The position numbers and the translations under genes were made by a program. 64,000 bases of DNA, taken from the IMG/VR virus record IMGVR_UViG_3300005739_000025; one strand, written 5' to 3'. The notes under the pieces were generated by a model. The model saw only the letters and a list, made by a program, of their open reading frames with translations. It was not told the origin of the DNA and did not search any database. This document shows, in pieces, positions 740 through 48,771 of the stretch (within the stretch, counting starts at the first letter, position 1; each line of letters opens with the position of its first letter). This stretch comes from a virus (taxonomy: Duplodnaviria > Caudoviricetes).

Positions 740-1114
740 TTACTCAGTAATAAAAATTTTTCTAAGAACTGATTTGACCATTTCGTCAAACGACTCTTTC
801 AAGCCTTTTTTCTTCTTAGATTTTTTCTTACCACCCTCTTGGTCTTCACCTTTAGCACCTGCAATGATATCACCTCTTGTTACTTTATCATAAGGTGGAT
901 AATTGTTTGCTAAGTTACCATCGTTGGATTCGTTAACCTTTTTCTTACTTTTACCTGCTTTTGAATAAGCAATTGCTGCAGCTTGTTTAGTAGCTGCTTT
1001 TTTTGACTTAGGTTTTGAACCCTTACCAACTTTACCAGTTTTTTTGTACTTTTTCATTTCTGTTTCTATATTTTTTGAAATAGTTTTTTTTGATTTTCCT
1101 TTTTTGAGTGGCAT
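740..1114 (-). CDS. Lys-rich basic late protein (MPLKKGKSKKTISKNI...), candidate internal head protein
   Basis: Start reassigned from 1132 to ATG 1114 because a TAAATA box lies 8 nt upstream. Highly basic, with internal VNE|S and LKE|S Glu sites. Confidence 0.6.
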   Translation of the reverse strand: MPLKKGKSKKTISKNIETEMKKYKKTGKVGKGSKPKSKKAATKQAAAIAYSKAGKSKKKVNESNDGNLANNYPPYDKVTRGDIIAGAKGEDQEGGKKKSKKKKGLKESFDEMVKSVLRKIFITE

Positions 1115-1122
1115 AACATATA

Positions 1123-1128
1123 TATTTA
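1123..1128 (-). promoter_or_regulatory. late promoter core TAAATA
   Basis: CTAAATA-8 nt-ATG(1114) on the minus strand. Confidence 0.6.
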
Positions 1129-1587
1129 GCACTTTTTAAAGCATTTTCTATATAAATTTAACAAATCTTCATCAGTAAATTTCATTTGTCTTAGAAAAGT
1201 TTCAATAAATCCTAAATCTTTAGAATTTAAAACTTGAATAACATCCGGGTCATCTTTCTTTTTTCCTAACTCTATCATTTTTTCTAAAATACCTTTTTTT
1301 AACAGAGTTAATTTTGAGTAGTTTGCACTTGTAACTTCTTGTGGTTGTTCATCTTCTACGGTTTCTATATTTGTTTTATTTACTGTTTGCACCGGATCAT
1401 AACCCGGTGGTATATTTACAATAAAGACCTTTAACTCATTACCAATATTTTCATGAAGTATATAACCCTCAAAATTAGGACTATTATAAAATCCTAATTT
1501 TTCAGCCCATAATGGATCAACCTTTATTCTTATCTTCTGTAACTTTTTATTTTCTAAAACATTTTTACAGATATTTAAAAATTTCAT
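1126..1587 (-). CDS. hypothetical late protein with capsid-targeting-like leader (MKFLNICKNVLE)
   Basis: ORF with ATAAATA 5 nt upstream. Confidence 0.55.
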   Translation of the reverse strand: MKFLNICKNVLENKKLQKIRIKVDPLWAEKLGFYNSPNFEGYILHENIGNELKVFIVNIPPGYDPVQTVNKTNIETVEDEQPQEVTSANYSKLTLLKKGILEKMIELGKKKDDPDVIQVLNSKDLGFIETFLRQMKFTDEDLLNLYRKCFKKC

Positions 1588-1592
1588 AATAT

Positions 1593-1626
1593 TATTTATT
1601 GAATTTTAGTGATTGAATATTATATT
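1593..1626. promoter_or_regulatory. divergent promoters: minus-strand late TAAATA (1593-1598) and plus-strand TTGAAT-N16-TATATT (1599-1626)
   Basis: Motifs read directly; they lie 5 nt and 7 nt from their respective ATGs. Confidence 0.55.
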
Positions 1627-1633
1627 ATAGTAT

Positions 1634-2284
1634 ATGAGTAAAAAGAAACTTCAGCATGCTAATCACAATATAGTTCATACATCAGAAGAAATAGAAGAGT
1701 TAATAACCAAAGGAGCCAAAGCATACGAAAATTATTTAGACGCTTTAGGGTTCGACTGGCGTAATGATCCTAATAGTGCGGATACCCCACATAGGGTAGC
1801 TAAAGCGTTTGTAACAGATCTGGCTATGGGTTGTTATACTGAACCACCAAAAGTGACGGCATTTGATAATGTTGATAGTTATGATGGCATGGTTTGCCAG
1901 AACAATATTAAGGTTGTTTCTTTATGCTCTCATCACCATGCACCTTTTATGGGTGTTGCTCATGTTGCTTATATCCCCTCTAAAAGTGGTAAAGTTATCG
2001 GACTATCGAAACTTAATCGAATTGTTGATTGGTTTGCCCGTCGTCCACAAGTTCAAGAAAATCTCACAATGCAGATTCATCAATATATTGATCAGGTTTG
2101 TGAGAAAAATAATGGGGTTGCAGTACTTATCGAAGCCAATCACACCTGCTGCTCTAATAGAGGTATTAAACATGATTCTACTATGAGAACAGCTAGAATG
2201 TCTGGTTCTTTTTTAGATAATAAAGATCAATCTAGAGCTGAGTTTTATAAGTTTGTAGAGTTTGCTCAAACCTGTAAGGGTTAA
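1634..2284 (+). CDS. folE: GTP cyclohydrolase I (FolE)
   Basis: Motifs [19 protein letters not shown] (Zn Cys/His), [20 protein letters not shown] and [11 protein letters not shown]. Confidence 0.95.
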
Positions 2285-2694
2285 TCCTTCTTGGTAATAT
2301 CTACTAAACCACCGTGTGCCTTTATAAAAGGTGCACCCAATAGAACTTTATAATTATTATCTGATCTGTCAGTAACAGAGAACGGTACGTTTTTATACAA
2401 CTTACCATTTACTATACAATCGGTTTGTATTACAGGTCTATCATCTATGTTACCCCCACCAATGTGAATTTTTATAACTTCAATAACAGGGAGAGTAACC
2501 TTTTTACCGTTTTCTAATTTAAAAGTTACTTCGTTCTTATTAATTTTTACTTCTGTTCCATGTAAGACGTTGTGCGCTTCATTGCCCGTATCAGTTTTAG
2601 CTTTAAATCTACCCAAATTAGGAATTTCTATATCTTCTATTAATCCGAGTGAGTTTTCAGTTATAATTGAGTTAGCTAAACAATGAAAATTCAT
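2281..2694 (-). CDS. retropepsin-like (RimK-associated type) putative aspartic protease
   Basis: KAKTDTGN resembles the AKIDTGA family motif; RPVI, and [15 protein letters not shown] resembles the L.DR..M.YP.LLGR motif. Confidence 0.7.
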
Positions 2695-2699
2695 ATATT

Positions 2700-2711
2700 T
2701 ATTTATAAATA
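2700..2711. promoter_or_regulatory. palindromic bidirectional late promoter TATTTATAAATA
   Basis: Perfect 12-bp palindrome giving TAAATA on each strand, exactly 5 nt from ATG 2694(-) and ATG 2717(+). Confidence 0.75.
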
Positions 2712-2716
2712 ACTAT

Positions 2717-3253
2717 ATGGGTAAAAAGACCGATTTAATTAATATATACGAAACATATAAAAATGAAGTAGTGGAAGAACTCAATATTGGTGTACCTCAA
2801 GGAGGCCCCGCTTTACACCCTACATTAGACGCTCAACCAACCAACGATCATATGGTTGGAATTAAGATAAAAGACGAAGATAGCGAACATCTTCCTTGTA
2901 ACGAACCACAAGAAGATAATAATACTGGGATGGCAAAGAGTGAAACTTTTAGCATCCTTAAAAACGCAAATGATTTAATGAATCTATTACAAACGGTTCA
3001 AAAAGTAGAGCCATGGCAGCTAAGTAAATTAGTAAAAGCAAACGATTATATTACATCATTAAAAAATTCGTTAGAATATGATGAGTTTGAAAAATGTCAA
3101 AAAGATATGCAGACAGGTATGAATGACATAGCTAACGGAATGGTGGTTGTATCTAAGATTAAAGATATGTTAACAGGCGAGGATATGGGTGTTAACGAAG
3201 AAGTGTTAAAACAAGTAATCTTTAATATTGAGTGTCTAAAAGAAAATAATTAA
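2717..3253 (+). CDS. hypothetical late protein, candidate internal head protein
   Basis: Leader ...INIYETYKNEVVEE. The EPWQLSKLVKANDYI segment resembles a motif I recall from T4-like environmental phage head proteins. Confidence 0.5.
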   Translation: MGKKTDLINIYETYKNEVVEELNIGVPQGGPALHPTLDAQPTNDHMVGIKIKDEDSEHLPCNEPQEDNNTGMAKSETFSILKNANDLMNLLQTVQKVEPWQLSKLVKANDYITSLKNSLEYDEFEKCQKDMQTGMNDIANGMVVVSKIKDMLTGEDMGVNEEVLKQVIFNIECLKENN

Positions 3254-3741
3254 TCCTTTTTCTCTTCTTTTTCTTCTTGTGGAACTTCTGTATCCACGTA
3301 CTCCTTCATTATATTATCAATAAACTTTAAAACTTTACGAGCCTTTTTGGGTGGTATTTCTAATTCACCCAAATCTTCATCTAGGTTTTGATAATTATAA
3401 CGGTTAATAACGTTTACTAAATTTTCTTCAACCGCGGTAGCACTGTCTTCATCCAAACCTTTAAGATATTTGATTACTTTAAGTCTATCGTCATCGTCTA
3501 GATCTACTAAAAGAGCTTTAGCTATCATTCCAATTAAAAATGCATCTGATGAACTTCTTGTAGCGGGTGTTTCGACAGGTTGTTCTGTCTCTACAGAAGC
3601 AGGAGCCGGTGCAGCAGGTGGCATAGCTGGAACTGGAGCTGGAGCTGCGGCTAAACCCGCAGCAGGTTCACCATAAGGTGGAACTTGTTCTGTTAAAACA
3701 TACTTATAAGCTCTATTAAGCTCTTTAATAAAATTACTCAT
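3250..3741 (-). CDS. hypothetical late protein with Ala/Pro linker
   Basis: CTAAATA 5 nt upstream (3747-3752); leader MSNFIKELNRAYKYVLTE. Confidence 0.55.
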   Translation of the reverse strand: MSNFIKELNRAYKYVLTEQVPPYGEPAAGLAAAPAPVPAMPPAAPAPASVETEQPVETPATRSSSDAFLIGMIAKALLVDLDDDDRLKVIKYLKGLDEDSATAVEENLVNVINRYNYQNLDEDLGELEIPPKKARKVLKFIDNIMKEYVDTEVPQEEKEEKKD

Positions 3742-4270: not shown

Positions 4271-4687
4271 TTACTCTTTAACAAGATTTTTTGGCGGCTT
4301 ACCAATTCTAACGTTAATTATACCGTTATAGTAGTTTTCATTTAATAAAACATCTCTACTTATTTGTTCTTTAATTTCCTCGTAGCTTAATTCCCATTTA
4401 GAACCACAAGTCTTTAATATTAAAAACTCAAAATTGTCTTTGCCGCACTTCTTAATGTCTTCATTTAAGTCATTTGAAGAGCCTGTATAAAATTTCCAGT
4501 CTGATTCTTTACTATCAATTCTATTTCTAAGTTTACCCTTTAAGGGTTTTCTTTTAATTTTACGTCTGCACTGTTTTTTACCGATGTAGGTTTTATTATT
4601 TGTAAGATTTTTTATACTGTAAATAAAACCAAAGCAGTCTTCGGTGAAGTCTAACCCATCTTTAATTTTCCAGTGCCCTAAGTCCAC
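4271..4687 (-). CDS. free-standing GIY-YIG family endonuclease-like protein
   Basis: GFIYSIKNLTNNKTYIGKK motif, ESDWKFYTGSS, and C-terminal YYN. Confidence 0.8.
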   Translation of the reverse strand: MDLGHWKIKDGLDFTEDCFGFIYSIKNLTNNKTYIGKKQCRRKIKRKPLKGKLRNRIDSKESDWKFYTGSSNDLNEDIKKCGKDNFEFLILKTCGSKWELSYEEIKEQISRDVLLNENYYNGIINVRIGKPPKNLVKE

Positions 4688-4695: not shown

Positions 4696-4914
4696 TTATT
4701 TTTCCTTTTTATTTTTTCTACTCTTCTTCTTTTTGCCTCTCCAAGCATCATTTCTAGAATAAATTCCCAATACATGAGGAACTCTTGAATCCCCAGAAGC
4801 GTAAAAATCTGTATTACCTACTTCACCACCATGCCCGAATGAACCGCCAGTTCCAAAAACACCTCCAGCACCTGCAGCGTTCATTTCATGTATGTAGGAC
4901 TTAAAACTCTTCAT
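4696..4914 (-). CDS. small late protein with T4 IP-like capsid-targeting leader MKSFKSYIHE
   Basis: The leader parallels T4 IPIII MKTYQEFIAE; TAAATA lies 8 nt upstream; Gly-rich body with a basic tail. Confidence 0.6.
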   Translation of the reverse strand: MKSFKSYIHEMNAAGAGGVFGTGGSFGHGGEVGNTDFYASGDSRVPHVLGIYSRNDAWRGKKKKSRKNKKEK

Positions 4915-5347: not shown

Positions 5348-6798
5348 TAGAGTTAGATTACTGTAATACTAAGAATAAAGGTATCATTAAAGGTCCTTTA
5401 ATGAAAGAAATAAGAGAGTATTTCTCTGAAAAAAATGAAGCCGCTAAATTTTTAAGACATAGATTTAAATTTATACCACAAAGAAAATATGTTATAACAC
5501 CTACAGGTAGATTTAATGTCGGTTTAACATATGAGATTATTAGCTTTCTCAAAAACACATACCCACAAGAGAAATTTAACGTTACAAAAGACTTATTAAA
5601 TGTATCTACACCCAACTCGTGGTATGAATATTTTAAAAATAATTTGGATATCTTAAAATTAAACTTAAATCTTTACGATTATCAAGAAGATATAGTTAAA
5701 AGATGTTTAGTTTCTGGTCGTGGTACTATAGTTTTGGCAACTGCTGGTGGTAAGACTTTAATTACCTCATCGTTGATCAATCATGCGAGAAACACTCTCT
5801 ATAAAGATAAAAAATCCTTTAGATGTTTTGTTATTGTACCTTCTCTTTCACTAGTTGAGCAAACAATAGATAAATTTAATGAGTACGGGGTCAATTTTAC
5901 GTACTCAAAATGGACAGGCAACAATCAATTAAACTTAGGTACAGATGTTGTAGTGTGTAATTTAGGCATTTTACAAAGTAAAAACACAGACATAACCATA
6001 TTACAAAATATTGACCTACTTATTGTAGATGAAGTACACATGCTTAGACAGAGTAATAATTTTAATAAAATTATTGATGTTGTGGAAACACCTCACAAGT
6101 TTGGATTTACTGGCACGTTACCAGAATCTAATGTAGATAAATGGAATATTGTAGGTAGGGTTGGTCCATTGCTTTACGAGCGTAAGGGTTATGAGCTTAG
6201 AAAAAATAATTTCGTATCTAATGCACAAGTTTCTATCTTAGAGCTAAACTACAAAACAAGACCACCACAATCTCATAGCGTTATTGATAAGTATAGATCT
6301 GAATTAGAATTCTTAATTTTTAGCGAATACCGTAACAAAGTAATAAGTAAAGTATGCGACAACGCTAAAAATAATATCTTAATAATGGTAGATTATATTA
6401 GACATGGTGAAAAAATTTACAACATTCTTAAAGAAAATTTATCTGAAAGTAAAGAAATCTACTTTATTCAGGGCTCAGTTGATACTGATGTTAGAGAGAA
6501 AATTAGAAAAAAGATGGAATACAAAGATAATGTTGTGTGTATTGCCATATCAAAAATATTTTCAACAGGTATTGATATCAAGAATTTACATTATATAATT
6601 TTTGCAGGAGGTGGAAAAGCTAAAATAAAAATTTTACAAAGTATTGGACGTGGGTTGAGATTACATAAAAATAAAAACGTTTTTAGTATTATCGATATAC
6701 AAGATCAACTCCATTACAGCATTAACCACGGTAAAAAAAGAATAGAATTTTATGTACAAGAAAAAATCCCTTACCAAAAAACAACCCTCTCAGAGTAA
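5344..6798 (+). CDS. uvsW: SF2 DNA helicase UvsW
   Basis: LYDYQ, ATAGGKT, VDEVH, GFTGT, FSTGIDI and QSIGRGLR helicase motifs. Confidence 0.93.
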   Translation: MIELDYCNTKNKGIIKGPLMKEIREYFSEKNEAAKFLRHRFKFIPQRKYVITPTGRFNVGLTYEIISFLKNTYPQEKFNVTKDLLNVSTPNSWYEYFKNNLDILKLNLNLYDYQEDIVKRCLVSGRGTIVLATAGGKTLITSSLINHARNTLYKDKKSFRCFVIVPSLSLVEQTIDKFNEYGVNFTYSKWTGNNQLNLGTDVVVCNLGILQSKNTDITILQNIDLLIVDEVHMLRQSNNFNKIIDVVETPHKFGFTGTLPESNVDKWNIVGRVGPLLYERKGYELRKNNFVSNAQVSILELNYKTRPPQSHSVIDKYRSELEFLIFSEYRNKVISKVCDNAKNNILIMVDYIRHGEKIYNILKENLSESKEIYFIQGSVDTDVREKIRKKMEYKDNVVCIAISKIFSTGIDIKNLHYIIFAGGGKAKIKILQSIGRGLRLHKNKNVFSIIDIQDQLHYSINHGKKRIEFYVQEKIPYQKTTLSE

Positions 6799-7300
6799 AA
6801 AGTTAGACTCTGCTCCAGTGGTTGCTGAAGTTGCCGTTACTAAACGTAAGAAGAAAAAATCTGTATCAGATAAAGACCATTACGTTAATGGTAGAGAATT
6901 TGAAGATGCAATTAAGGGTTATTATTCTTCCGATAAAATTACAGCTTATCTAGGCGAAAGTTTGAGAAAAATAGCTGTCGGATTATCTTATGCTCCAAAC
7001 TTTATTAACTATTCCTTTAAAGACGACATGATCGGGGACGCAGTATTAAAAATGTATCAAGCATTAAAGCATAAAAAATTTAAATTAGATCATGGTTTTT
7101 CACCGTTTAGCTATTTCACAACCATTGCATTTCATGCATTTATATCTAGAATTAAAAAAGAGAAAAAGCACCATCAAGTTATAGAAGATTATAAAGAGAG
7201 ACAATATAATCTATTAATTAACTCTGATGAAGATATGAGATCTCATAGAGTTTATACTAAACCTAGCAATGTCGATCACGACATATATAATGAAGATTAA
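6752..7300 (+). CDS. gp55: late-transcription sigma factor gp55
   Basis: HYVNGREF, PNFINYSFKDDMIGDA and SPFSYFTTIAFHAFISRIKKEKK match the gp55 pattern; sits between uvsW and gp47. Confidence 0.88.
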   Translation: MYKKKSLTKKQPSQSKKLDSAPVVAEVAVTKRKKKKSVSDKDHYVNGREFEDAIKGYYSSDKITAYLGESLRKIAVGLSYAPNFINYSFKDDMIGDAVLKMYQALKHKKFKLDHGFSPFSYFTTIAFHAFISRIKKEKKHHQVIEDYKERQYNLLINSDEDMRSHRVYTKPSNVDHDIYNED

Positions 7301-10173: not shown

Positions 10174-11412
10174 ATGTTTTTTCAAAAAAGTCCTATGATG
10201 ATGTCGCCGTTACAGCGTAACGCGCAAAAAATGACACCAACCTCTCCGATGATGCCAATGCAAGTGCCTGGAGCTCCGGGTCCGATGGTACCGCCAGAGA
10301 GCAATTTACCAAGAGCTATTCAATATTATGCTGATTATTCTGGTTGTGGTTTCTGGAGAATGATTTGGCCTGAACATATTATTAATGCTTATAATCATTG
10401 TACTGTTCATGGTAGTACAGTAATGTGTCTTGATCCCAGATGGTATGTTCAAGCTAAGGTTGTAAGAATACAAAGACAAGCAACAGAACATCAACTTCAA
10501 TTCGTTAAATTCCTTAAAGAAGTCCAAAGCCAAGTAGGATTCAGACTCATTTATGAAATCGATGATTTAGTATTCCATGAAGATATTCCCGAGTATAATA
10601 AATTTAAGCCAGCGTTTACTGATCCAAAGATCAGACAAAACATTTTGGAAATAATGAATCTCTGCGATGAAGTTACAGTAACTTGTCAATTCATGAAAGA
10701 TTATTATGAAGGTAAGACTGGACATAAAAATGTAACAATTATACCAAACTATCCACCAAAAATGTGGATTGGTAATCACTATGATCCTAAATGGATTTCA
10801 GATTCATATGATCAATTTCAAAGCAAGCCACGTATTTTATATGCTGGTTCTGGGGCACACTTCGACGTTGATAATAGAGTAGGTCAAAACGATGACTTTG
10901 CACACGTTATTAAAGCAATTGCTGACACAGTTGATAAGTTTCAGTGGGTGTTCCTCGGAGCATTTCCATTGCCGCTTAGACCTTTTGTTGAGTCTGGTAA
11001 AATAGAGTTTCACCCGTGGGTAAATCTCTACAACTATGGAGAAAAGATTAAAAACTTACGTATTAATATGATGGTTGCTCCATTACAGGACAACAACTTT
11101 AATAAATCTAAGTCAGATTTAAAATTAATTGAAGCTAATGCATTTGGTATTCCTATTGCATGTCAAAATCTTTGTACATATGAAGATGCACCATTTAAAT
11201 TTGATACAGGTGAAGAAATGATAGAGGTCGTTAAAGAAGTCTTAAGTAAGAAAGGTAGATATATGAATCTATCTGCAAAAGCTAGAGCTACAGCCAATAC
11301 AAGGTGGCTTGAGAACGAAGATAATCTTAAGGCCTATGTAGAGCTCTTTACCTTACCATGGGGCGACAAAAACAGAACTAAACTAAATGTTATTAACGGC
11401 ATTACCGTTTAA
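10174..11412 (+). CDS. putative glycosyltransferase (GT-B fold) with Met/Pro-rich N-terminus
   Basis: DYSGCGFWRMIWP, YEIDD, APLQDNNFNKSKSDLKLIEA; TAAATA lies 5 nt upstream (10163-10168). Confidence 0.75.
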   Translation: MFFQKSPMMMSPLQRNAQKMTPTSPMMPMQVPGAPGPMVPPESNLPRAIQYYADYSGCGFWRMIWPEHIINAYNHCTVHGSTVMCLDPRWYVQAKVVRIQRQATEHQLQFVKFLKEVQSQVGFRLIYEIDDLVFHEDIPEYNKFKPAFTDPKIRQNILEIMNLCDEVTVTCQFMKDYYEGKTGHKNVTIIPNYPPKMWIGNHYDPKWISDSYDQFQSKPRILYAGSGAHFDVDNRVGQNDDFAHVIKAIADTVDKFQWVFLGAFPLPLRPFVESGKIEFHPWVNLYNYGEKIKNLRINMMVAPLQDNNFNKSKSDLKLIEANAFGIPIACQNLCTYEDAPFKFDTGEEMIEVVKEVLSKKGRYMNLSAKARATANTRWLENEDNLKAYVELFTLPWGDKNRTKLNVINGITV

Positions 11413-19043: not shown

Positions 19044-19700
19044 ATGTGTGGTATATATGGAGCAAATGATAGAGAAAAATTTCTTACTCTACAAAAATTA
19101 AATACAGAACGAGGAGATTTTTGCGAAAGTAGCGTATTAGTCACAAAAGACGGGTTTGAAATACATAAGGTTCCAAAAAAAGCTAAAAAAAATTATAAGT
19201 TTCCAAAAAGAAAAAAATTTGATTTGTATCTAGGACACTCCCAGGCCCCAACTTCCACTAAAAGATTATTTAACCCAGAAACATCTCATCCATTTACTGT
19301 TGAAAATTGGGTAGTAGCTCATAATGGAGTATTAACAAATTACAAAGAGCTTGTTAATCAATTTCAAAGACCATACAACAACCCGGTAGATAGCAGTATT
19401 ATACCCTATCTTATGTACAAAATGAGTGAACTTTCATCTAACGAAATAGAAATTATAGTTAATTCGTTAGAGTTTTTAAAAGGTACGTTTGGTGTTTGGA
19501 TACATAACGCATTTACAGGTAACACATTTTTAGCTAAATGTGGGGTAACATTATTTGCAGATATATATGATAATTGTTTTAGCTCAGTAAGTTACAAGTT
19601 TTTTGACCCTTTAGAGGAAGGAACACTATACCAACTAACAAGTGAAGGAATCACTAGTGTCGCAACATTTGATTGTGATAGTCCGTTCTTTACTGTTTAG
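19044..19700 (+). CDS. class II (Ntn) glutamine amidotransferase-like protein
   Basis: N-terminal MCGIYG, GHS, HPF, HNGVLTN, VDS, GTF. Confidence 0.85.
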   Translation: MCGIYGANDREKFLTLQKLNTERGDFCESSVLVTKDGFEIHKVPKKAKKNYKFPKRKKFDLYLGHSQAPTSTKRLFNPETSHPFTVENWVVAHNGVLTNYKELVNQFQRPYNNPVDSSIIPYLMYKMSELSSNEIEIIVNSLEFLKGTFGVWIHNAFTGNTFLAKCGVTLFADIYDNCFSSVSYKFFDPLEEGTLYQLTSEGITSVATFDCDSPFFTV

Positions 19701-20548
19701 TCCCAAGGCATATCACCTTTAGATCTACCAATATAAACACCACCGTAAGGGTCTTTATCAAAATCTTCCACGTCTTCAGGGTCATAACCAGAAGTTACCT
19801 CACCAGTACCTTCACCTTCATTTTCCTCTTTCTCTTTTGTCTCTTCTGGATCTACAGCTTCGTAGTTACCACCGTCGGTTTTTTGTAAATAACCTGTTCG
19901 AATAAGAGAAGAAATGTTTATTTTTGCTTCTGACTCTTCCATATCAGGGTTATCCCCTATCATCATTCTAGTTAATTCTTCTCTAGAATATCCACCTTCA
20001 CCTAAAATTCTTTCCCAGAATCTTTTCATTACTGGATCATCTATACCCGCACCAGCGTTTGTTTGTTTTGATGTTTCTGACGATGGCTCTTCTTTGTCTA
20101 GCTTATCTGCATTTTTTAAAGTGTAATTTGTTAACTTTTCTACACCTTTTTGTGATGGTTTTTTATCCATAACAACCCCATCTCTTTCGTCTTTAAGTAC
20201 CCCTGCTGCTTTTAAAGCATTGTATAATACTCTAGCTGAGTATTTTGAATTAGTGTTATTGATAGATGGTTTAATTTCTCTAATAACTGGAGCCAACTCC
20301 ATTTCATAAAAGTCCTTATATAGTTTTGGGGACTTTCCACCCTTAGCTTTAAATGTGGATAAGAATTTTGAAAATACTTGCGATGTTTCTTCAGGTGTTA
20401 AGTCGTATTTACCTTTAGCTAATTCTGGAAACTCAGCTTTTACCTCTTCCCCTGATCCTGAATAGTCACCCATCTCTACAGGTGCTAGTTCGTTTAATAC
20501 GTTTTTCTTTTTATAAGCTTCAAAAATTAGATATGAGTCTTTGTCCAT
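19697..20548 (-). CDS. late protein with capsid-targeting-like leader and possible winged-helix domains
   Basis: TATAAATA 5 nt upstream; leader ...LIFEAYKKKNVLNE; helix-helix-helix-beta hairpin pattern (NISSLIRTGYLQKTDGGNYEAV). Confidence 0.5.
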   Translation of the reverse strand: MDKDSYLIFEAYKKKNVLNELAPVEMGDYSGSGEEVKAEFPELAKGKYDLTPEETSQVFSKFLSTFKAKGGKSPKLYKDFYEMELAPVIREIKPSINNTNSKYSARVLYNALKAAGVLKDERDGVVMDKKPSQKGVEKLTNYTLKNADKLDKEEPSSETSKQTNAGAGIDDPVMKRFWERILGEGGYSREELTRMMIGDNPDMEESEAKINISSLIRTGYLQKTDGGNYEAVDPEETKEKEENEGEGTGEVTSGYDPEDVEDFDKDPYGGVYIGRSKGDMPWD

Positions 20549-28480: not shown

Positions 28481-28485
28481 AATAG

Positions 28486-29526
28486 GTGTTTTTACCGTTA
28501 ACAGAAAACTATATCGCGAGTAAGTTTTTTCAAAACTGCGGTAAACCCTTTTATAATAGAACTCAGAAAACCTATCAAGGTTCTTGCCCTATTTGTAGAG
28601 AAGGTAGCTCTTGGCTTAAAAAAAGACGATGCTACTATATCGTTGATAAGAACGTAGTCTGCTGCCATAATTGTGGTTGGTACAGCAATCCATATAATTG
28701 GATTTTAAAAGTAACAGGTCTTAATTTTTCTGAAGTTAAAAAAGAATTAGAAAATTTTGATACACCTATATTTTCTGTAAATATAAAGCAAAAGGATAAC
28801 AAAAAAGAACACAATATAACAGAGAACTTGCCTTCAGATAGTATTAACTTATTAGACGAAAATCAAACAGAGTATTATTCTCAAAACCAAACCATTAAAC
28901 AGGCACTAAGTTTACTTAGAAACAGAAGACTTATAAGCGCTATAAACAGACCTTTAACATTTTATATTTCACTAACTGACAAGGTACACGAAAATAGATT
29001 GGTGATACCTTTTTACAGTGATGATAATAAGATAATCCATTATCAAACAAGAACTGTTTTAGATACTGATACTAGACCAAAATATCTATCAAAAGTAGGG
29101 TCCGAAAAGTCTCTCTACGGTATTAATGCTGTAAATAGCGATCTCGAATATTTGTTTATTACAGAAGGTCCAATCGATGCTATGTTTTTACAAAATGGTA
29201 TTGCAGTAGCAGGTATTAATGAGAGTAAGACAAGAAACTTTACCGAGACCCAAAAACAGCAACTTAATGGCTACCCTCTACATAAAAAGATATGGGTATT
29301 AGATAATCAATATAGCGATAAAACAAGTAAACAAAAGACAAAGAACCTATTAGACGCAGGTGAAAACGTATTTATATGGCCTGAAAATCTAAAGAATTAC
29401 AAAGATTTAAACGAGTATTGTATAGATAAAAAGTGTGATAGTTTTGATAGAGATATTATTTTAAATAATACCTATTCAGGACTTAGAGGTAAGTTACTAC
29501 TTACTAGTCGTTGCTGCCAGCAATAA
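28486..29526 (+). CDS. gp61: DNA primase gp61
   Basis: Zn ribbon CPIC...CHNCG, RLVIPF, YQTR, PKY, and TOPRIM ITEGPIDAMF, LDN, KDLNE. Confidence 0.92.
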   Translation: MFLPLTENYIASKFFQNCGKPFYNRTQKTYQGSCPICREGSSWLKKRRCYYIVDKNVVCCHNCGWYSNPYNWILKVTGLNFSEVKKELENFDTPIFSVNIKQKDNKKEHNITENLPSDSINLLDENQTEYYSQNQTIKQALSLLRNRRLISAINRPLTFYISLTDKVHENRLVIPFYSDDNKIIHYQTRTVLDTDTRPKYLSKVGSEKSLYGINAVNSDLEYLFITEGPIDAMFLQNGIAVAGINESKTRNFTETQKQQLNGYPLHKKIWVLDNQYSDKTSKQKTKNLLDAGENVFIWPENLKNYKDLNEYCIDKKCDSFDRDIILNNTYSGLRGKLLLTSRCCQQ

Positions 29527-29923
29527 GATAACCTTTAAGAGCTTCTGCTAATGCTGATAGATCAACCGCCACTCTAGAAATTCTCTTTGATTCAGAGCTG
29601 GCAATTTTTTCAAACATTGTATCACAGTCACAATTGTGTAGTTTGGTTTGAACAGAAGATTCATTAACTCCGTTTAAGTATTCTACAAATTCTTCAATTT
29701 TAGAAATCCAATTAGTAAGCTCAGATTTTTGTGAATCTAGACTTTGTTGTTTTAAAGCTGCGATATCTTCGCCTGGCTTGATCCCAGCACCAAGATCTTC
29801 AGGAGCAACACCTGGCTCTAATTCACCTTGAAGAGCATCCTCTTCACCTGTGTCCTGAGGTGGCTTAATTTCTTCTTCATCTTGTTCTAATAGAACTTTG
29901 AAACGATCTTTAAATAGTGACAT
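29504..29923 (-). CDS. late protein with capsid-targeting-like leader (MSLFKDRFKVLLE)
   Basis: TAAGTA variant box 6 nt upstream; acidic N-terminal half. Confidence 0.55.
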   Translation of the reverse strand: MSLFKDRFKVLLEQDEEEIKPPQDTGEEDALQGELEPGVAPEDLGAGIKPGEDIAALKQQSLDSQKSELTNWISKIEEFVEYLNGVNESSVQTKLHNCDCDTMFEKIASSESKRISRVAVDLSALAEALKGYLIAGSND

Positions 29924-29964: not shown

Positions 29965-30351
29965 ATGGGTAAAAATAATAAAATGATTAGCGAAGATGTT
30001 CAGAACATATATAACAAATGGGTGTCTGGAATAGCTAAAAGAGAAGCGCCACCAGAAGTAATAACAGCAGCTGATATTCAGAATAGATATAGAAATGGTT
30101 TAAACTATACAGCGCCTCAATCGCTTCCTTATCCTTTAACTAATCTTTTAGATTTTTTAGGTAACTTATTTGTTAAGTCTGCTGAAATGAGACATTCTTT
30201 GGGAAGTGCTATTACGTATCCAGTAATTAAAGAAAAAAAATCTAGTGTAGATGCAATTAAAAAACTAAATGAAAAATTAAGAGAGATTCAGGACATTATA
30301 TACTCTTGCACTGAAGAGCTTAATCAAATAGTTGAAAATAAAGAAAAGTAG
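29965..30351 (+). CDS. hypothetical late protein
   Basis: ATAAATA 6 nt upstream; leader MGKNNKMISE. Confidence 0.55.
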   Translation: MGKNNKMISEDVQNIYNKWVSGIAKREAPPEVITAADIQNRYRNGLNYTAPQSLPYPLTNLLDFLGNLFVKSAEMRHSLGSAITYPVIKEKKSSVDAIKKLNEKLREIQDIIYSCTEELNQIVENKEK

Positions 30352-31525: not shown

Positions 31526-32251
31526 CGTGTTGTTAATATTCATATCAAATACCTGGAACCTAGACTGAGCTTCAGCATCTCCTGGATATGATGAAGTTCT
31601 AATAACAGGTGTAGTTTGATTACTAGATAATATCCCGTAATAAGTATCATCATGTACTTGGGCACTACCCTTTTCAAATGTTATATCTGGCTCAAAAGAG
31701 TAATCAAAACGCTTAGCTTTTAACATCCACACATAGTGTCCCATAAGCGGATTAATTTGAGAATTGTCTTCATCACATCTTTCGGTGATTTCAAACATCT
31801 TACCGTCCCTTTCACCTGGTCTGTCGGACCCATATTCTAAAAGTTTAAAAACATCTCCAGATTTTGGTTCCCATGTTGGAGGAAACACAGCATAGAAACT
31901 ACTTATATGTACATATGCTGTTACCGTGTCATCGCTTTGAAAACCAAACTTACTTAATACTAAGGCATTTTCAGCTAATTTAACTCCCATTATTAAAGGC
32001 TGAGGTGTTAAAAACCCCGCTAAAGGCTGTTCACCGTAAATGTTATCAGCAGTTTCTACATTATATTTGTTTCTATAATAAAGTACTTTTTGCCCATATA
32101 ATTCTATTTGCTCTTTCCACCAATTACTATACATTAGTCTTTCGCCATAATTGTTAGCCTTATCTGTATAACGTAAAGCGGTAGGGGTATATCCGTTATT
32201 TGGATATGTTTGAATACAATTCATTCCCTCATATTTGTCTAGTGAAATCAT
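31502..32251 (-). CDS. gp14: neck/head-closure protein gp14-like
   Basis: EQIELYGQKVLYY, NIYGE, LSKFG..SDD, EPKSGDV match the gp14 pattern. Confidence 0.75.
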   Translation of the reverse strand: MISLDKYEGMNCIQTYPNNGYTPTALRYTDKANNYGERLMYSNWWKEQIELYGQKVLYYRNKYNVETADNIYGEQPLAGFLTPQPLIMGVKLAENALVLSKFGFQSDDTVTAYVHISSFYAVFPPTWEPKSGDVFKLLEYGSDRPGERDGKMFEITERCDEDNSQINPLMGHYVWMLKAKRFDYSFEPDITFEKGSAQVHDDTYYGILSSNQTTPVIRTSSYPGDAEAQSRFQVFDMNINNTLTYGGYY

Positions 32252-32619
32252 TTTTTAAGTGCAAAGGTTTTTAAGTTATTGTCCCAAACTATAGCTATAC
32301 CCGTGTTTCCAAGCTTTCTAGGTACATCTTTAGTTACTTTATAAATTTTATATTTCTTACAAATTTGTTTTAATTGAACACCATTTAAGGGTTCATAGTG
32401 AGAGAATTTGTTTTTAATTTTTTCTACTTTTTGAATGATATCTGGGTCCGGTTTAATATATTCCGGAACGGTTTGAAGATTTTTTCTTAATAAGGGGTTT
32501 CTGATAATATTAGCTCTATGTCTATGACCTTTTTCTTGAGCAGGATCTTTTATAGGAGCAAAGAAATTAACGTAGCCGCCATTCCAGGTCTGTTCAAAAA
32601 ATTTTTTAAACGTTAACAT
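32248..32619 (-). CDS. late hypothetical protein with leader MLTFKKFFE
   Basis: CTAAATA 6 nt upstream. Confidence 0.55.
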   Translation of the reverse strand: MLTFKKFFEQTWNGGYVNFFAPIKDPAQEKGHRHRANIIRNPLLRKNLQTVPEYIKPDPDIIQKVEKIKNKFSHYEPLNGVQLKQICKKYKIYKVTKDVPRKLGNTGIAIVWDNNLKTFALKK

Positions 32620-32691: not shown

Positions 32692-33540
32692 TTATGAGAA
32701 TAAGTTATGTCCAGCTTTAATGGAACTACTTACTTTGTTATCTTTCTTTGTAAGAACGTGACCTTTGTCACCAAGAGCTGTTAAGTCAGAAGCTTTTGTT
32801 ACGTCTGTTGAAGCTTTGCCTTTTGAAGCTTTGATGTTGCCAGCAGCGTCCATACCTTTTGTTAGCTTTTTGCCGTGCTCATCAGATAATTTTTCTGCTT
32901 CTACTTCTTCAGAATAACTATCTTCCTCTTCTTCATCTTCGTCTTCGACTTCTTCATCTTCGTCTTCTACTTCTTCTTCGTCTTCATCTTTGTTCTCTTC
33001 ACCACCTTCTGTGTCGATTTCGAGATCTTCTAGGTCTGACTCTTCATCACTACCTAAATCTTCTTCACCACCAACTGCAGCTTGAAGAACGTCGATTAAT
33101 GTTTGTGCTGTTTCTTTGTCTAAAGTAACTGTTACTTCGTTACCACCCATGTCTTCTTCACCACCGAAGTCGGTATCGACATCTGTATCAGATTCCATAT
33201 CGCCTTCTGGACCGGCACTAGGACCGAGATCTAACTCGTCATCCATTACGTTTTCGAAAAGTTTATCAAATTTAGATTTCATAAAACTATTTATATTTTC
33301 GCGTACATTTTTTCTACTACTTTTTTTACTTTTTTTAACCTTTTTGAGACCTTTAACTTTTTCTGGGCCAGAATCTTTCATTGTTTTTGGCTCCTTAACA
33401 GTCTCACCAGCTTTTGGAAATGTACCTTTAGGAAATTTTTTAGCTGATTTCTTTTCTTCTACTAATTCTGAACCACCTGTATTTTTGTACATTGATTCAT
33501 ATAGTGAACTGATGTCAGTAATAGATTTAATTCTTGTCAT
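32692..33540 (-). CDS. charged low-complexity late protein, candidate head core/scaffold-type protein
   Basis: ATAAATA 5 nt upstream; basic N-terminal part and Glu/Asp-rich middle; internal late promoter with an in-frame ATG at 33282. Confidence 0.55.
   Translation of the reverse strand: MTRIKSITDISSLYESMYKNTGGSELVEEKKSAKKFPKGTFPKAGETVKEPKTMKDSGPEKVKGLKKVKKSKKSSRKNVRENINSFMKSKFDKLFENVMDDELDLGPSAGPEGDMESDTDVDTDFGGEEDMGGNEVTVTLDKETAQTLIDVLQAAVGGEEDLGSDEESDLEDLEIDTEGGEENKDEDEEEVEDEDEEVEDEDEEEEDSYSEEVEAEKLSDEHGKKLTKGMDAAGNIKASKGKASTDVTKASDLTALGDKGHVLTKKDNKVSSSIKAGHNLFS
33288..33293 (-). promoter_or_regulatory. intragenic late promoter TATAAATA driving in-frame ATG 33282
   Basis: Minus strand reads TATAAATA-GTTTT-ATG AAA TCT AAA TTT. 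Confidence 0.6.
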
Positions 33541-35936: not shown

Positions 35937-35942
35937 TAAATA
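35937..35942 (+). promoter_or_regulatory. late promoter TAAATA for the sheath gene
   Basis: ATAAATA-ATTTT-ATG; the same string precedes the tube (38390) and gp25 (48823) genes. Confidence 0.75.
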
Positions 35943-35947
35943 ATTTT

Positions 35948-38365: not shown

Positions 38366-38389
38366 CAAAATTAATGAATAAATAATTTT

Positions 38390-43759: not shown

Positions 43760-45408
43760 TAAAAGGTATTTTCAGCAATTTAACTTCTGGTGGCGCAAAA
43801 AAGGATAACGTTGAGCAAATTGGCGATAACGTATATATTTTTAACTTAAAACTTTTTAACGGAACTTCTGAAGTAGGTTTAAAATTTAGCGCAGTAGAGG
43901 ATTTACAAATTGTAGATGACTTAAGGTTCTTTTATGTTTATGGAACTTTAACAATTAACTACAACAATGATGTTTTAGAAGCGTTTGAAAGTTTAGGTAG
44001 TAGCATGGGAACAGGTGGTGGTAATGCGCAGTCGTATCAATTTAGAGGTGATGGTAGAGATATTTTAAAAATAGATATAATGCCTCAAATAAAAGAGCAA
44101 AAATGTTTGGAGGTTTATGCTTCAGAAAGTGACAGAAAAAAATATAATATTAAACACGAATGTAGTATATACAAATATGAAGATATAACTTCGAGTAAGG
44201 GAAATAAACAGAGAAAATTTTATTTTTGGGACAGAGATTTTCAAATATTAAGCGATGTAACAATAGACTACTCTACAGGAGACAAAACAAAAAGTGGTAC
44301 AGGTTCGTCTCCTAAGGGTGGTTCTGCAAAAACAGGCGCTGGTGCTGCAGCTGCAGCATCTAACCCAGCAACAAGATCTACTACAAGCGGTACCCAGGCT
44401 GGTAATAAAAAAGCTTCAAACTCGAATACAGAAAATAGTGTATTAACTAGTGAAGCTATGGAGGATATATTAAAGAAAGCTTTAGTAGAAATATCTGGAC
44501 AAAAATTTAAAAAGGGTTTGTGGGATACCGGGGAATCAAAAATAATGTATTATAGCACAAGCAGCAACAAAGCTGTACAAGATCTGTCTTATGTGTTATC
44601 ACTACATATTAGTGATAAAAGTAATAACAACTTACCGTGTTTGCTAAAAAAAGAAAGATATACAGACAAATATGATTTAAAACCTATAAACAAGTATTAT
44701 TCTGGGGGTACCGGTCTGAGTTTGGGTACTTTGTTAAACGCTAATGATCAAGAGGATTTTTACATAGGTAAAATAGATCCATCTTCTTCTGGACTACAAC
44801 GAGGTAGTATGAAGGGTTCCAGAGGAGGTAAGATGAACGTTTCTGATTACAACTTGATAGACGATTATACTTTCACTAAAATAAATGCTAAAGACCTACA
44901 AAAGTATCTAGCAACATCTATAGTTCATAGTAATGATCCAAGAGGTTTTTTTACATCAGATTTTAAAGAAAATAACTTTCAAAGCGCTACTAAGTTATAC
45001 GAAAAAACTTATTTAAAATCAGGAAATTACTCTAGTGGTTCTAGTACAAATACCCCTGTTAATAAATTAAGAAAAACTCACAAGACTATAACACATGATT
45101 ATATTCCAGATAACGTAAGTAAAGAACAAAGAAAAAGTTATGGTGTTAATAAAGGTATGTTAAATTTATTTTTTAAAAATACATCTATATCTTTTAGAGC
45201 TAGAGGTAATACAATGAGACAAACAGGTAAATTTTTCACAATAAATAGAATGGATAGTAACATAAGTACTTCATATGATAACAATGTTTTAGGAAAGTAT
45301 ATGACAACGTACGTGATACATCAATTTGGAAAAGGCGGATATACTAATACTATTCACGGGGTCAAACCGTATGTAGATAAAAAACAAAACTTTACGGAGG
45401 AAGTCTAA
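43756..45408 (+). CDS. baseplate hub protein gp27-like
   Basis: Follows gp53; C-terminal RGN...GK...GKY.TT.V.H.F hub pattern. Confidence 0.6.
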   Translation: MIKGIFSNLTSGGAKKDNVEQIGDNVYIFNLKLFNGTSEVGLKFSAVEDLQIVDDLRFFYVYGTLTINYNNDVLEAFESLGSSMGTGGGNAQSYQFRGDGRDILKIDIMPQIKEQKCLEVYASESDRKKYNIKHECSIYKYEDITSSKGNKQRKFYFWDRDFQILSDVTIDYSTGDKTKSGTGSSPKGGSAKTGAGAAAAASNPATRSTTSGTQAGNKKASNSNTENSVLTSEAMEDILKKALVEISGQKFKKGLWDTGESKIMYYSTSSNKAVQDLSYVLSLHISDKSNNNLPCLLKKERYTDKYDLKPINKYYSGGTGLSLGTLLNANDQEDFYIGKIDPSSSGLQRGSMKGSRGGKMNVSDYNLIDDYTFTKINAKDLQKYLATSIVHSNDPRGFFTSDFKENNFQSATKLYEKTYLKSGNYSSGSSTNTPVNKLRKTHKTITHDYIPDNVSKEQRKSYGVNKGMLNLFFKNTSISFRARGNTMRQTGKFFTINRMDSNISTSYDNNVLGKYMTTYVIHQFGKGGYTNTIHGVKPYVDKKQNFTEEV

Positions 45409-46253: not shown

Positions 46254-46734
46254 TATCTAACGGTTCAAATTCAGCTTCTATAACTTCTGACTTTTCTATA
46301 AGTTTTTTAAGAACTTCATCTCTAGTTAACAAATATTTTTGTGGTATATCTTCTTTGCTTGCTTCCTTAAGCTCTTTTTTTGCTTTAATGTCCATTTCTT
46401 TTAACTCTTTGTTATTTTCTATTTTTGAATTTGCAACTTGTATATCCTTAAGAACTGATAATGCACTGCTTACCGCTTTGAACGCTTGAGAAAGTGATTC
46501 GATTTCTTCTGCATTTGGATTACTTACAAATATAGACTTAAGCTCTTTAATTGTATCAAGACCCTCTACAACTAATTCGCCTGTTTTTTCTAATATAAAT
46601 TTTTCTAAATTATCTTTTTTAAGAGTATCAACTTCAGATTTATATTCTTTGTTTTTTGTATTAACATTATCAACTTGCTCTTTAAGCTTTTCCGTTAACT
46701 CGTTTACAGTAATGTAATTAGAATCATCTTCCAT
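46240..46734 (-). CDS. helical protein, possible terminase small subunit gp16-like
   Basis: ILEKTGEL..EGLDTI..L..., LSVLKDIQ and LLTRDEVLKKL loosely follow the gp16 layout. Confidence 0.35.
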   Translation of the reverse strand: MEDDSNYITVNELTEKLKEQVDNVNTKNKEYKSEVDTLKKDNLEKFILEKTGELVVEGLDTIKELKSIFVSNPNAEEIESLSQAFKAVSSALSVLKDIQVANSKIENNKELKEMDIKAKKELKEASKEDIPQKYLLTRDEVLKKLIEKSEVIEAEFEPLDIKQD

Positions 46735-46750
46735 TTAATTAGTTATTATG

Positions 46751-46778
46751 TTGATTAAGTTAATCTATAATTTATAAT
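46751..46778 (+). promoter_or_regulatory. sigma70-like promoter TTGATT-N16-TATAAT
   Basis: 6 nt before the dUTPase ATG. Confidence 0.7.
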
Positions 46779-46784
46779 AAGGTT

Positions 46785-47231
46785 ATGATTCAGTCTATTC
46801 TTAAAAAACCCGTTATGAGATTTGCTAAAACTCATCAAGACGCTCAATTACCAAAAAAAAATCATTCTGACGATGCTGGCTGGGATTTATTTTCTGTAGA
46901 AAATAAAATTATTAAAGCTAAAGAGAAAGCAGTCGTTGATGTCGGCTTACAACTAGCTTATTTAGAGCCTGGTTATTGGATTAGAGTTGCTTCAAGATCT
47001 GGATTATCATTTAAGAATGGTATTTTAGCTCATCCTGGTGTTATTGATACGGGATATAGAGGTACTCTTGGAGTACTATTGTATAATCATGATTTAGTTG
47101 ATCACGAAGTTAAAGTAGGTGATAGAATTGCCCAAATAGTTGTACATTTTAACGTTGACTTAGACGTGGAATGGGGTAATATAGAAACTACAGAACGAGG
47201 TGAAAAAGGTTTTGGTTCTTCTGGAAGATAA
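46785..47231 (+). CDS. dut: trimeric dUTPase
   Basis: DAGWDL, SRSGL, GVIDTGYRG, GDRIAQ, RGEKGFGSSG. Confidence 0.96.
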   Translation: MIQSILKKPVMRFAKTHQDAQLPKKNHSDDAGWDLFSVENKIIKAKEKAVVDVGLQLAYLEPGYWIRVASRSGLSFKNGILAHPGVIDTGYRGTLGVLLYNHDLVDHEVKVGDRIAQIVVHFNVDLDVEWGNIETTERGEKGFGSSGR

Positions 47232-48166
47232 TGGAAAATAACTTAGAAAATCTTTGGATTGAGAAATATCGTCCAAAGCTAATTAGTGATCTTGTCTTAT
47301 CTGATGAAAACAGAAAGATAATAGATAAATTTATTACTAGCGATGAAATACCGAATTTACTTTTATACGGTAATGCTGGCACAGGTAAGACTTCATTAGC
47401 TAAGATTTTGGTAAATGTATTGGATGCAGAGCATTTATTATTGAACTGCTCCGAGGTTGGTATTGATACAGTTAGAACAACTATCACACAATTTAGTCAG
47501 ACCAAAAGCTTTAACGGTAAAATGAAAATCGTTATATGCGATGAAATAGATTCCGCTTCTAGTGATGCTCAAAGAGGTTTAAGAAATACAATGGAAGAAA
47601 ACGCGGGTTATTGTAGGTATATCTTAACCTGTAATTATGTTAATAGAGTCATACAACCTCTACAAAGTAGATGTCAATCGTTTTTACTAACCCCACCTAT
47701 TGCAGGTATCGTTAAAAGAATAGGTCATATTTTAAAAGTCGAAAACATTACTCTGGACGAAGATAATAAGAAAAAGTTGGTTTTACTTGTAAAGAGACTT
47801 TACCCTGATACGAGAAAGAGTATTAATGAAGTTCAAAAGTTCTGTGTTGAGGGTTCGTTAGCTTTGCCAGAAGTTAATATAGTAGATAATTTTGCTACCG
47901 AAATAGTAAATTTAATTATTAAAGGCAAAGCATTAGATGCTAGAAAGTATGTTATCGAGAACGAAGCAGGATTCAATGCTGACTACCAGCAGCTTTTGAA
48001 CACGTTGTTTGATATGGTCTGTAATCAGAATTTACCGATAACAGAGCTGCAGAAAAAGATGTGGCTTATTACTATAGGGGAATATATGTATAGAAGTGCA
48101 TTTGTGGTTGATCCTGAAATTAACTTCTATTGTCTTATTTTAGCCCTATCAGAAATAAGGGATTAA
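47231..48166 (+). CDS. gp44: clamp loader AAA+ subunit gp44
   Basis: WIEKYRP, GNAGTGKT, DEID, TCN, SRC, DTRK. Confidence 0.92.
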   Translation: MENNLENLWIEKYRPKLISDLVLSDENRKIIDKFITSDEIPNLLLYGNAGTGKTSLAKILVNVLDAEHLLLNCSEVGIDTVRTTITQFSQTKSFNGKMKIVICDEIDSASSDAQRGLRNTMEENAGYCRYILTCNYVNRVIQPLQSRCQSFLLTPPIAGIVKRIGHILKVENITLDEDNKKKLVLLVKRLYPDTRKSINEVQKFCVEGSLALPEVNIVDNFATEIVNLIIKGKALDARKYVIENEAGFNADYQQLLNTLFDMVCNQNLPITELQKKMWLITIGEYMYRSAFVVDPEINFYCLILALSEIRD

Positions 48167-48771
48167 CGACTCTTGGGCATGTAACGTGCTGTGTAGCTTG
48201 CTACTGCTGGATCTTTATCTCCTTCGGCTGGACTTGAAGGAATTTTTACGTTTTGGGTAGGAAGACTTATATTAGATTTAGAATCTCTACCATCACCAGT
48301 ATCTGTTGTATTTGTTTGCCTGTAAGGTGATAGGTATGAAGTTGGATCCTGTTTTGTTGTTATTTCTTCTGGATCTATAACTTCATTATTATGTCTTCTT
48401 AATGCATCCGGAACTGGAGCTAGATTAATACCTGTATCTACGTACTCTAATACATGCGCCGGTACAGTTACGAATTGATAGTATAATCCTGGAGCCGTTT
48501 CTAAAACAATGTCCACTAAGAAAGATTCAGCCTCGTTCTGAATATTACCTGGTTTGTAAGAGCTGGGATAAACTGCTTTAACAGCAGAGACCCTTATATT
48601 AAGTCCTGATTTAACAAATTCATCGATCTTTTGAAGATAATTAACAGCTTGTTTTTTAAAGAATTCATCTCCTTGAAAACCTTCTTTAAATTTTACCAAA
48701 TCTCCAACTAGAAAGCCACCTCTAGTATATCTTTGAATAGCTGATTCGTACAGTTTTATAAACTTTCCCAT
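48163..48771 (-). CDS. late hypothetical protein with leader MGKFIKLYE
   Basis: TATAAATA 5 nt upstream. Confidence 0.6.
   Translation of the reverse strand: MGKFIKLYESAIQRYTRGGFLVGDLVKFKEGFQGDEFFKKQAVNYLQKIDEFVKSGLNIRVSAVKAVYPSSYKPGNIQNEAESFLVDIVLETAPGLYYQFVTVPAHVLEYVDTGINLAPVPDALRRHNNEVIDPEEITTKQDPTSYLSPYRQTNTTDTGDGRDSKSNISLPTQNVKIPSSPAEGDKDPAVASYTARYMPKSR

Follow-up and report, generated by a model that had tools for sequence, protein, structure and literature searches.

About nine of 12 genes dispersed between positions 740 and 48,771 of a 64,000-nucleotide stretch of T4-like myophage DNA (IMG/VR virus record IMGVR_UViG_3300005739_000025; the whole stretch is called the window below), together with a few genes outside it, on balance seem to encode late proteins with a propeptide of the T4 capsid-targeting sequence (CTS) type, an amphipathic N-terminal segment of 9-20 residues. 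Judged from these leaders, the products are probably head-core or head-internal proteins. This reading is built on the leader sequences, on their association with late promoter boxes, on their enrichment and conservation, on the presence of a gp21-type prohead protease and a late sigma factor, and on the homology between a 72-aa leader-bearing protein and the cleavage region of the major capsid protein (MCP) of the same phage.

The T4 protease gp21 cuts after L/I-x-Glu and the CTS corresponds to the first 10 residues of the internal protein IPIII (PMC9026906), in which mutagenesis has assigned residues 4 and 7 to targeting and residues 8 and 10 to processing (PMC9026906). In the genes described here, an aromatic or hydrophobic side chain at about position 4 would be followed after 3-4 residues by a second one, and this in turn by Leu/Ile/Val-x-Glu. 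If the T4 scheme applies, the propeptide helix would bind the scaffolding core during prohead assembly, leaving the gp21-type protease to cut behind the Glu. The set is probably a mixed one, comprising some retained internal proteins, of which the 72-aa protein is the clearest, and acidic, low-complexity members that would serve as core or scaffold accessories in the manner of T4 gp67 and gp68. We infer in this way the timing of transcription, targeting, cleavage, retention in the head and injection.

A gp21-type protease and a gp22/gp23-type core and shell are found in the same genome. The window (G000:C1:70423-134422, minus strand, in a 148.8-kb assembly; 32% G+C) contains genes for a gp43-type polymerase, a gp41-type helicase, gp46/47-type nuclease subunits, the large terminase, the sheath, the tube and a baseplate wedge protein. 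Just outside it, at G000 52450-55771, lie the genes for the gp21-type protease (G000 55097-55771; phrog_207, 1.3e-58) and the gp23-type MCP (phrog_138, 4e-82; E 2e-38 against T4 gp23), and between them a gene for a 292-aa protein which, from its position, is the probable scaffold. Sites near the N-terminus are found on this machinery as well, at LVE8 in the protease and at LSE17 and LKE22 in the scaffold candidate, their T4 counterparts (AF158101) being LIE9 in gp21 and IAE9 in gp22. The scaffold candidate is the protein with the densest [LI]xE sites in the proteome (13 sites, p 3.6e-6). The MCP has a candidate I-N-E/A maturation site at INE59 (a slash marks the putative cut), which is the L/I-x-E nearest to the T4 gp23 cut position.

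Late boxes and enrichment of the leaders

The sequence-only reading had described 12 leader genes, each with a TAAATA-type box 5-8 nt upstream. Its N-termini, start coordinates and strands were all reproduced, and TAAATA was recovered at that distance from the ATG in 11 of the 12, as well as before 1114(-) (genes are named here by the position of their start and their strand). The departure is 29923(-), which has TAAGTA where its homologues have TAAATA. That the proteins are otherwise unrelated was borne out by all-against-all BLASTP, which gave nothing below E 0.01. A spacer of 5-8 nt between TAAATA and the ATG occurs in 41 of 143 genes, each other offset accounting for about 0.5 genes. The box is present before sheath, tube, baseplate, fibre and protease genes and absent before replication genes, and a gp55 homologue is encoded in the window; it is therefore read as a late promoter, and boxes of the TAAATA or TATAAATA type would qualify by their sequence as gp55-dependent.

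With the T4-defined motif [LI]xE and its Glu at residues 8-20, 18 of 49 late-box genes match; the remaining genes give 14 of 94, and internal control windows of the same size 11% (binomial 2.6e-6, Fisher 0.003). Over the whole proteome 27 [LI]xE sites have their Glu at positions 10-15, where 7.8 are expected. The enrichment was replicated at the level of families, using the genome and 83 related loci retrieved with the terminase and a helicase as anchors (409 families). A strict CTS-like pattern (an aromatic residue near position 4, a hydrophobic one 3-4 residues later, then [LIVMF]xE) is found there in 13/96 late-box families and 5/313 others (Fisher 1e-5, odds ratio 9.6), a pattern composed after the data were seen, so that the p-value is optimistic. 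Roughly two to three false members are expected among the 13 late families. A leave-one-family-out matrix that omits P1 and P3 scores the leaders above internal sites (combined p 8e-5, for a set chosen post hoc). Across all late-box genes an aromatic residue at position 4 is not significantly frequent (6/49), and it is therefore a feature of the leader-bearing subset only.

Of the 12 listed N-termini, 32619(-) has Phe at P3, 1587(-) has Val, and the other 10 have Leu or Ile. In nine of the 12 (4914, 3741, 2717, 20548, 29923, 29965, 32619, 33540/33282 and 48771) relatives keep both the leader and its Glu site; conservation is lost for 1587(-), whose homologue lacks the Glu, and is equivocal for 2694(-), and 1114(-) lacks a leader. 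PHROG and Pfam scans of the 12 candidates gave no PHROG function, and the sole Pfam match was that of 2694(-). An explanation of the leaders as signal peptides or membrane segments was rejected, there being no long hydrophobic run in the quoted N-termini.

Further CTS-like small open reading frames (ORFs) lie outside the window, at G000 28374-28947, 44031-44177 and 133684-135238, with the starts MNKDIKILFE, MFNKIVKKLLE, MNLNFDNIIKVLLE, MKFADFLLIEE and MNNFDITYSILLEE; a Pfam scan of four such ORFs gave no family.

The leader families and their relatives

The strongest candidate for an internal head protein, from its sequence, is the 72-aa product of 4914(-). Its eight homologues have leaders of the form MKSFK-x-[YF]-[ILV]-x-E, with F4 and E10 invariant, Tyr or Phe at residue 7 and Ile, Leu or Val at residue 8, and the family matches the T4 CTS determinants at residues 4, 7, 8 and 10 exactly. 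An hhalign comparison with the MCP of the same phage (probability 95.9%, E 6.3e-9) places residues 7-53 on MCP residues 56-112 and registers YIHE/MNAAG of the small protein on CINE/ANVAGG of the MCP, and BLASTP also pairs the two (E 8e-5). The protein has a single site, and every member of the family ends in a Lys/Arg tail of 15-35 residues, presumably DNA-binding; in T4 internal proteins only lysines contact DNA phosphates (PMC3012670). It is a long shot that the family is a new kind of internal head protein, in which a T4-type leader is joined to a polybasic tail by way of a copied MCP maturation site and N-arm. Once cleaved, such a protein would use its arm mimic to occupy an MCP N-arm binding place on the inside of the capsid wall, the tail would tether or condense DNA, and the lineage would load at least ten conserved proteins by means of a degenerate CTS.

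A GIY-YIG homing-endonuclease-like gene (4271-4687, minus strand) lies between the 72-aa gene and the next minus-strand genes, and in the relatives L086 and L087 a GIY-YIG gene is found in the same place. It matches phrog_7363 and phrog_314, and its top match, phrog_447, is labelled NAD synthetase.

Conservation in the other families is concentrated on the same few positions. Among the 208 homologues of 48771(-), a sample of 48 rows has F4 and E9 invariant and L7 and Y8 conserved in at least 90%, while positions 2, 3, 5 and 6 vary. The 20548(-) family, with 69 homologues, has an invariant Glu at column 10 and at least 90% conservation of F9 and E20, its two sites being separated by a stretch of variable length. 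The AlphaFold2 (AF2) model of this protein has a helix at residues 3-14, a linker and two helix-helix-helix-strand domains which may be winged-helix-like, although the evidence is weak: compared with PDB folds the model gave no match at E <= 0.001 and only weak winged-helix matches (E >= 0.05). For 29923(-), 13 distinct homologues at 31-70% identity keep F8 invariant and L12 nearly so; apart from L027 (VLRE) and L032 (FLTE), they align their Glu in a single column behind two hydrophobic residues, and conservation falls for about 20 residues after the Glu, in the acidic linker; a PDB sequence search revealed no relation. The Glu of 29965(+) follows Ile, Leu or Phe in every homologue with a readable start, I/L-x-E/D in six (ISE, IGE, INE, LSE) and F-D-E in L038, and the residues before it vary.

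Homologues of 32619(-) have the leaders MVSFKTFFE, MSIFREAFLQALQE and MLFEKYYLQSLDE, and families that were clustered separately and are apparently related start with MVSFKEYFYE and MMTFKEFFLKE, near the MKTFKEF of T4 IPI. The leader of 33540(-) is kept in most of about 20 homologues (variants VYCE, IYRE and IYQK). In 12 distinct relatives the in-frame short form starting at 33282 is encoded on its own, behind a late box of its own, and begins with MSNKSLFEKLFE or MSNFDKLYE; it is therefore a genuine unit.

At the left end of the window, 3741(-) is laid out as leader, Pro/Ala-rich linker and acidic C-terminal domain, and its leader is kept in all three homologues (L005, L086 and L087) as LTE, ILE or LME followed by Q. 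Both homologues of 2717(+), in L086 and L087, keep DLIxIYE up to the putative cut. Neither protein has a family in Pfam or PHROG scans. In the intergenic region that separates 2694(-) from 2717(+), each TATAAATA lies exactly 5 nt from its own ATG, as read directly from the sequence. The remaining genes of this cluster fit less well. The Glu of the 2694(-) extension is kept in one of two homologues (IIE in L087, lost in L086, which has LLDS), and the extension is equivocal as a leader. Residues 16-136 of this protein match PF05618 (E 4.7e-10; 'putative ATP-dependent zinc protease', retropepsin-like), an unusual domain for a phage late gene. In 1587(-) the Glu is replaced by Arg in the single homologue found (L087, VLRT) and the residues after it are conserved, and its N-terminus is probably not a cleaved leader. 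For 1114(-) internal Glu sites had been proposed; two [LI]xE sites are indeed there, at residues 107 and 124 (the C-terminus), and are unremarkable. Its N-terminal 22 residues match phrog_2423 (unknown function), and its membership of the set is not supported on leader grounds.

Table 1. Positions of the leader genes and associated features in the window
Feature	Position	Strand	Description
124-aa Lys-rich basic protein, pI 10.1	740..1114	-	N-terminus MPLKKGKSKK, no leader
153-aa protein	1126..1587	-	N-terminus ending V-L-E; P3 is Val, neither Leu nor Ile
137-aa retropepsin-like protein	2281..2694	-	13-residue N-terminal extension ending I-T-E; TATAAATA 5 nt upstream
Divergent late-box example	2695..2716		22-bp intergenic region; two TATAAATA boxes overlapping by 4 bp
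178-aa acidic protein	2717..3253	+	candidate leader ending I-Y-E/T; TATAAATA 5 nt upstream
163-aa acidic protein, pI 4.5	3250..3741	-	18-residue candidate leader ending L-T-E/Q; TAAATA 5 nt upstream
72-aa protein	4696..4914	-	candidate leader MKSFKSYIHE, copy of the MCP post-cleavage N-arm, polybasic tail; TAAATA 8 nt upstream
gp55-type late sigma factor	6752..7300	+	phrog_234 (late sigma transcription factor), E 8.3e-26
283-aa acidic protein	19697..20548	-	sites L-I-F-E10/A and [LIV]-x-E at about 20, then two possibly winged-helix-like domains
139-aa acidic protein	29504..29923	-	candidate leader MSLFKDRFKVLLE/Q, poorly conserved acidic linker, conserved helical C-terminal domain
128-aa protein	29965..30351	+	short candidate leader MGKNNKMISE/D; TAAATA 6 nt upstream
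123-aa basic protein	32248..32619	-	candidate leader MLTFKKFFE/Q; TAAATA 6 nt upstream
282-aa protein (long form)	32692..33540	-	candidate leader ending L-Y-E15/S, Lys-rich module; TAAATA 5 nt upstream
In-frame short form	start 33282	-	MKSKFDKLFE/N, poly-Asp/Glu region; perfect TATAAATA 5 nt before the internal ATG
202-aa protein	48163..48771	-	candidate leader MGKFIKLYE/S, small beta domain, disordered tail; TATAAATA 5 nt upstream

Known systems and competing explanations

T-even ip genes occupy a hypervariable locus and share one near-identical CTS. In T4 an Asp at residue 10 prevents processing and leaves targeting intact. The T4 leaders, as read from AF158101, show a comparable arrangement: IPI, IPII, IPIII and Alt are unrelated proteins whose N-terminal propeptides, 10-19 residues long, end in L/I-x-Glu, and MKTYQEFIAE/A and MKTFKEF...ITE/A of T4 can be set beside MKSFKSYIHE/M, MKSFKEYINE/M and MVSFKEYFYE/Q here. 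Apart from the exact match of 4914(-), the CTS determinants are approximated in 48771(-) (F4, L7, Y8, E9), in 32619(-) and in the 33282(-) short form, the other leaders being longer or in a different register. The likeness to the T4 internal proteins extends to the presence of a gp21-type protease and to the placement of the genes on the strand opposite to the surrounding replication genes. The differences are that the leaders are heterogeneous, that the genes are dispersed and conserved in many relatives, with no hypervariable ip locus, and that most predicted products are acidic rather than basic. No homology of the candidates to IPI, IPII or IPIII was found, and they are not ip genes proper.

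T4 gp67 and gp68 are parts of the core or scaffold and are degraded. Along with gp22 they resemble the present set in being small late proteins with an N-terminal L/I/V-x-Glu site. T4 gp68 (MLLIPETHELVLE/N, 13 residues) has 141 aa, and the acidic protein of 29923(-) has 139 aa and a 13-residue leader, but hhalign of the 29923(-) family against gp68 gave a probability of 0.5%, that is, no homology. The poly-acidic tail of gp67 is similar in composition to the poly-Asp/Glu of 33540(-)/33282(-). In contrast to T4, where gp67 and gp68 are encoded between the portal and protease genes, the genes here lie elsewhere. The giant phages phiKZ, 201phi2-1 and SPN3US offer another precedent: a diverged gp21-type protease recognizes a short motif in many of their unrelated head proteins and cuts behind its Glu, and some of these proteins enter the host by ejection (PMC9026906). 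The motif there reads S/A-x-Glu and follows from long propeptides, whereas the present phage has a classical gp23/gp21 module and T4-type L/I-x-Glu. No description of CTS-type leaders in environmental T4-like phages was found in the literature. The phenomenon is of a kind already known from the T4 CTS with gp21 processing and from giant-phage propeptides; what is distinct here is the occurrence of heterogeneous leaders on dispersed, conserved genes, and the capsid-arm mimic.

Several observations weigh against the proposed propeptides or against an injected payload. The 'late' label of the leader genes comes from a box in the sequence, and the leaders are heterogeneous, unlike the near-identical CTS of T-even phages. 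The assertion that the leader is commoner in late genes holds for [LI]xE; it does not survive a looser P3, since with [LIVMF] 21/49 late-box genes match against 30/94 others (Fisher 0.13). The 4914(-), 3741(-) and 29965(+) families fail to score in the leave-one-out test. The motif is short, and in a 70-kb T4 calibration the simple rule matches 28 of 121 ORFs, about 7 of which are known gp21 substrates. The strict pattern recovers IPII and IPIII there, together with lysozyme, thymidylate synthase and I-TevIII; substrates are therefore enriched by the motif without being identified by it. The tail sheath (35948-38365, plus strand) certainly does not belong to the head core, and yet 97% of 32 relatives retain V-E-I-[RN]-E at its residue 14, a conserved false positive that acts as a negative control for motif calls; conservation alone is therefore no proof of cleavage. 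One alternative is that there is no targeting signal, the N-terminal helices being ordinary, uncleaved parts of the proteins and the motif arising from A/T-rich codons (Lys, Phe, Asn, Ile, Leu, Tyr, Glu) at leaderless 5' ends together with conservation of the fold. In its favour, the late box abuts the ATG, so that constraints on the RNA may act on the opening codons, and the T4 false positives, the sheath and the weak contrast with [LIVMF] point the same way. We consider this explanation unlikely. Many late structural genes with the same promoter-ATG layout (tail tube, baseplate, fibres) lack the motif, the hydrophobic residues and the Glu are fixed within families while polar positions vary, which indicates selection on the protein, and several families have a linker of low conservation or changing length behind the leader, which is therefore not packed into a domain. 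The alignment of the 72-aa protein with the MCP exactly across a maturation-type site, and the odds ratio obtained at the level of families, also speak against it. Among the points against the propeptides, the MCP cut at INE59 is a putative one: in a BLAST alignment T4 Glu65 falls about 13 residues beyond it, within Gly-rich sequence.

The leaders could also be real assembly tags on proteins that are not injected cargo, most of them being accessories of the core or scaffold which, in the manner of T4 gp67, gp68 and gp22, are broken down and expelled, or else neck or baseplate assembly factors with a similar helix. This is a serious possibility, though clearly less probable than the reading that we favour. 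Strong acidity (pI 4.4-4.7) and linkers of low complexity, either acidic or of Pro/Ala type, mark five members, the poly-Asp/Glu run of 33540(-)/33282(-) and the size and leader length of 29923(-) recall gp67 and gp68, respectively, and 3741(-) and 29965(+) have 5 [LI]xE sites each. With up to 208 homologues at 57-90% identity, the families are core-like and conserved rather than a hypervariable payload. 32619(-) is co-transcribed with a gp14-like neck gene (31502-32251; phrog_679, head closure Hc2) and a role in the neck is possible, while 48771(-) is divergent from baseplate genes. In the latter protein high conservation continues past the site, and in its AF2 model, which found no fold match in BFVD at E <= 0.001, one helix (residues 2-16, of lower confidence than the beta domain) runs through the site; cleavage is therefore less certain here, and the helix may be part of the fold. 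On the other side, there is no sequence homology to gp68, the single site and polybasic tail of the 72-aa protein are as expected of a retained, DNA-bound internal protein, and 20548(-), 48771(-) and 33540(-) have few internal sites. The sequence-only reading had gone as far as a head-packaged, injected payload. Late genes, a gp55-type sigma factor, a gp21-type protease and CTS-like leaders agree with the T4-like setting of that picture; the conserved, core-like families differ from a hypervariable payload such as that of the T-even ip loci, and several acidic ones are at least as similar to gp67/gp68 as to injected effectors.

Promoter layout, lineage and wider meaning

Besides the pair described above, divergent genes with spacers of 35-51 bp are found at 4914/4955, 20548/20585, 29923/29965, 33540/33576 and 48771/48823. 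Boxes abut the start codons (for example at 35930-35950, 38372-38392 and 48805-48825 of the window), and a Shine-Dalgarno-like core was seen in only 7 of 143 genes. Given the geometry of T4 late promoters, late transcripts would begin at the ATG or at most about 3 nt from it, and the first gene of most late units would therefore be translated from leaderless mRNA; a literature search combining leaderless mRNA, late promoter and T4-like returned one mention, apparently incidental. TATAAT-like boxes can be seen by eye at a similar distance before some early genes (e.g. 15236, 16383, 17051 and 20585), and a genome-wide count of them gave no clear peak. A late-type box also stands 5 nt upstream of a gene for a glycosyltransferase-like protein (phrog_7162; 10174-11412, plus strand) with an odd Met/Pro-rich N-terminus, MFFQKSPMMMSPLQ.

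The MCP is at most about 33% identical to the capsid protein of any cultured phage, and the lineage is therefore deep-branching and uncultured; megablast of the terminase-sheath region gave no match, and tblastn of the 48771(-) and 29923(-) proteins against GenBank phages gave none either, leaving no cultured relative with these genes. Proteins identical to those of the window also occur on a 244-kb contig. The true genome may therefore be larger than the 148.8-kb assembly, and it is probably of jumbo size.

To our knowledge, nearly all work on the loading of proteins by a CTS and gp21 concerns T-even coliphages. Should the leaders act as they do in T4, the head contents of an abundant, uncultured freshwater/aquatic lineage of T4-like phages would become predictable from sequence, and the reading names exact mature N-termini that could be checked by metaproteomics of viral fractions without culture. 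Those predicted are MNAAGAGG for 4914(-), QDEEE for 29923(-), AYKKK or LAPVE for 20548(-), QVPPYG for 3741(-), SAIQRY for 48771(-) and ANVAGG for the MCP. The capsid-arm mimic and polybasic tail of the 72-aa protein suggest a specific coupling of DNA to the shell. If the reading is true, loading by a CTS and gp21 would be ancient and widespread, and it would serve conserved, core-like proteins, beyond fast-evolving anti-restriction cargo.

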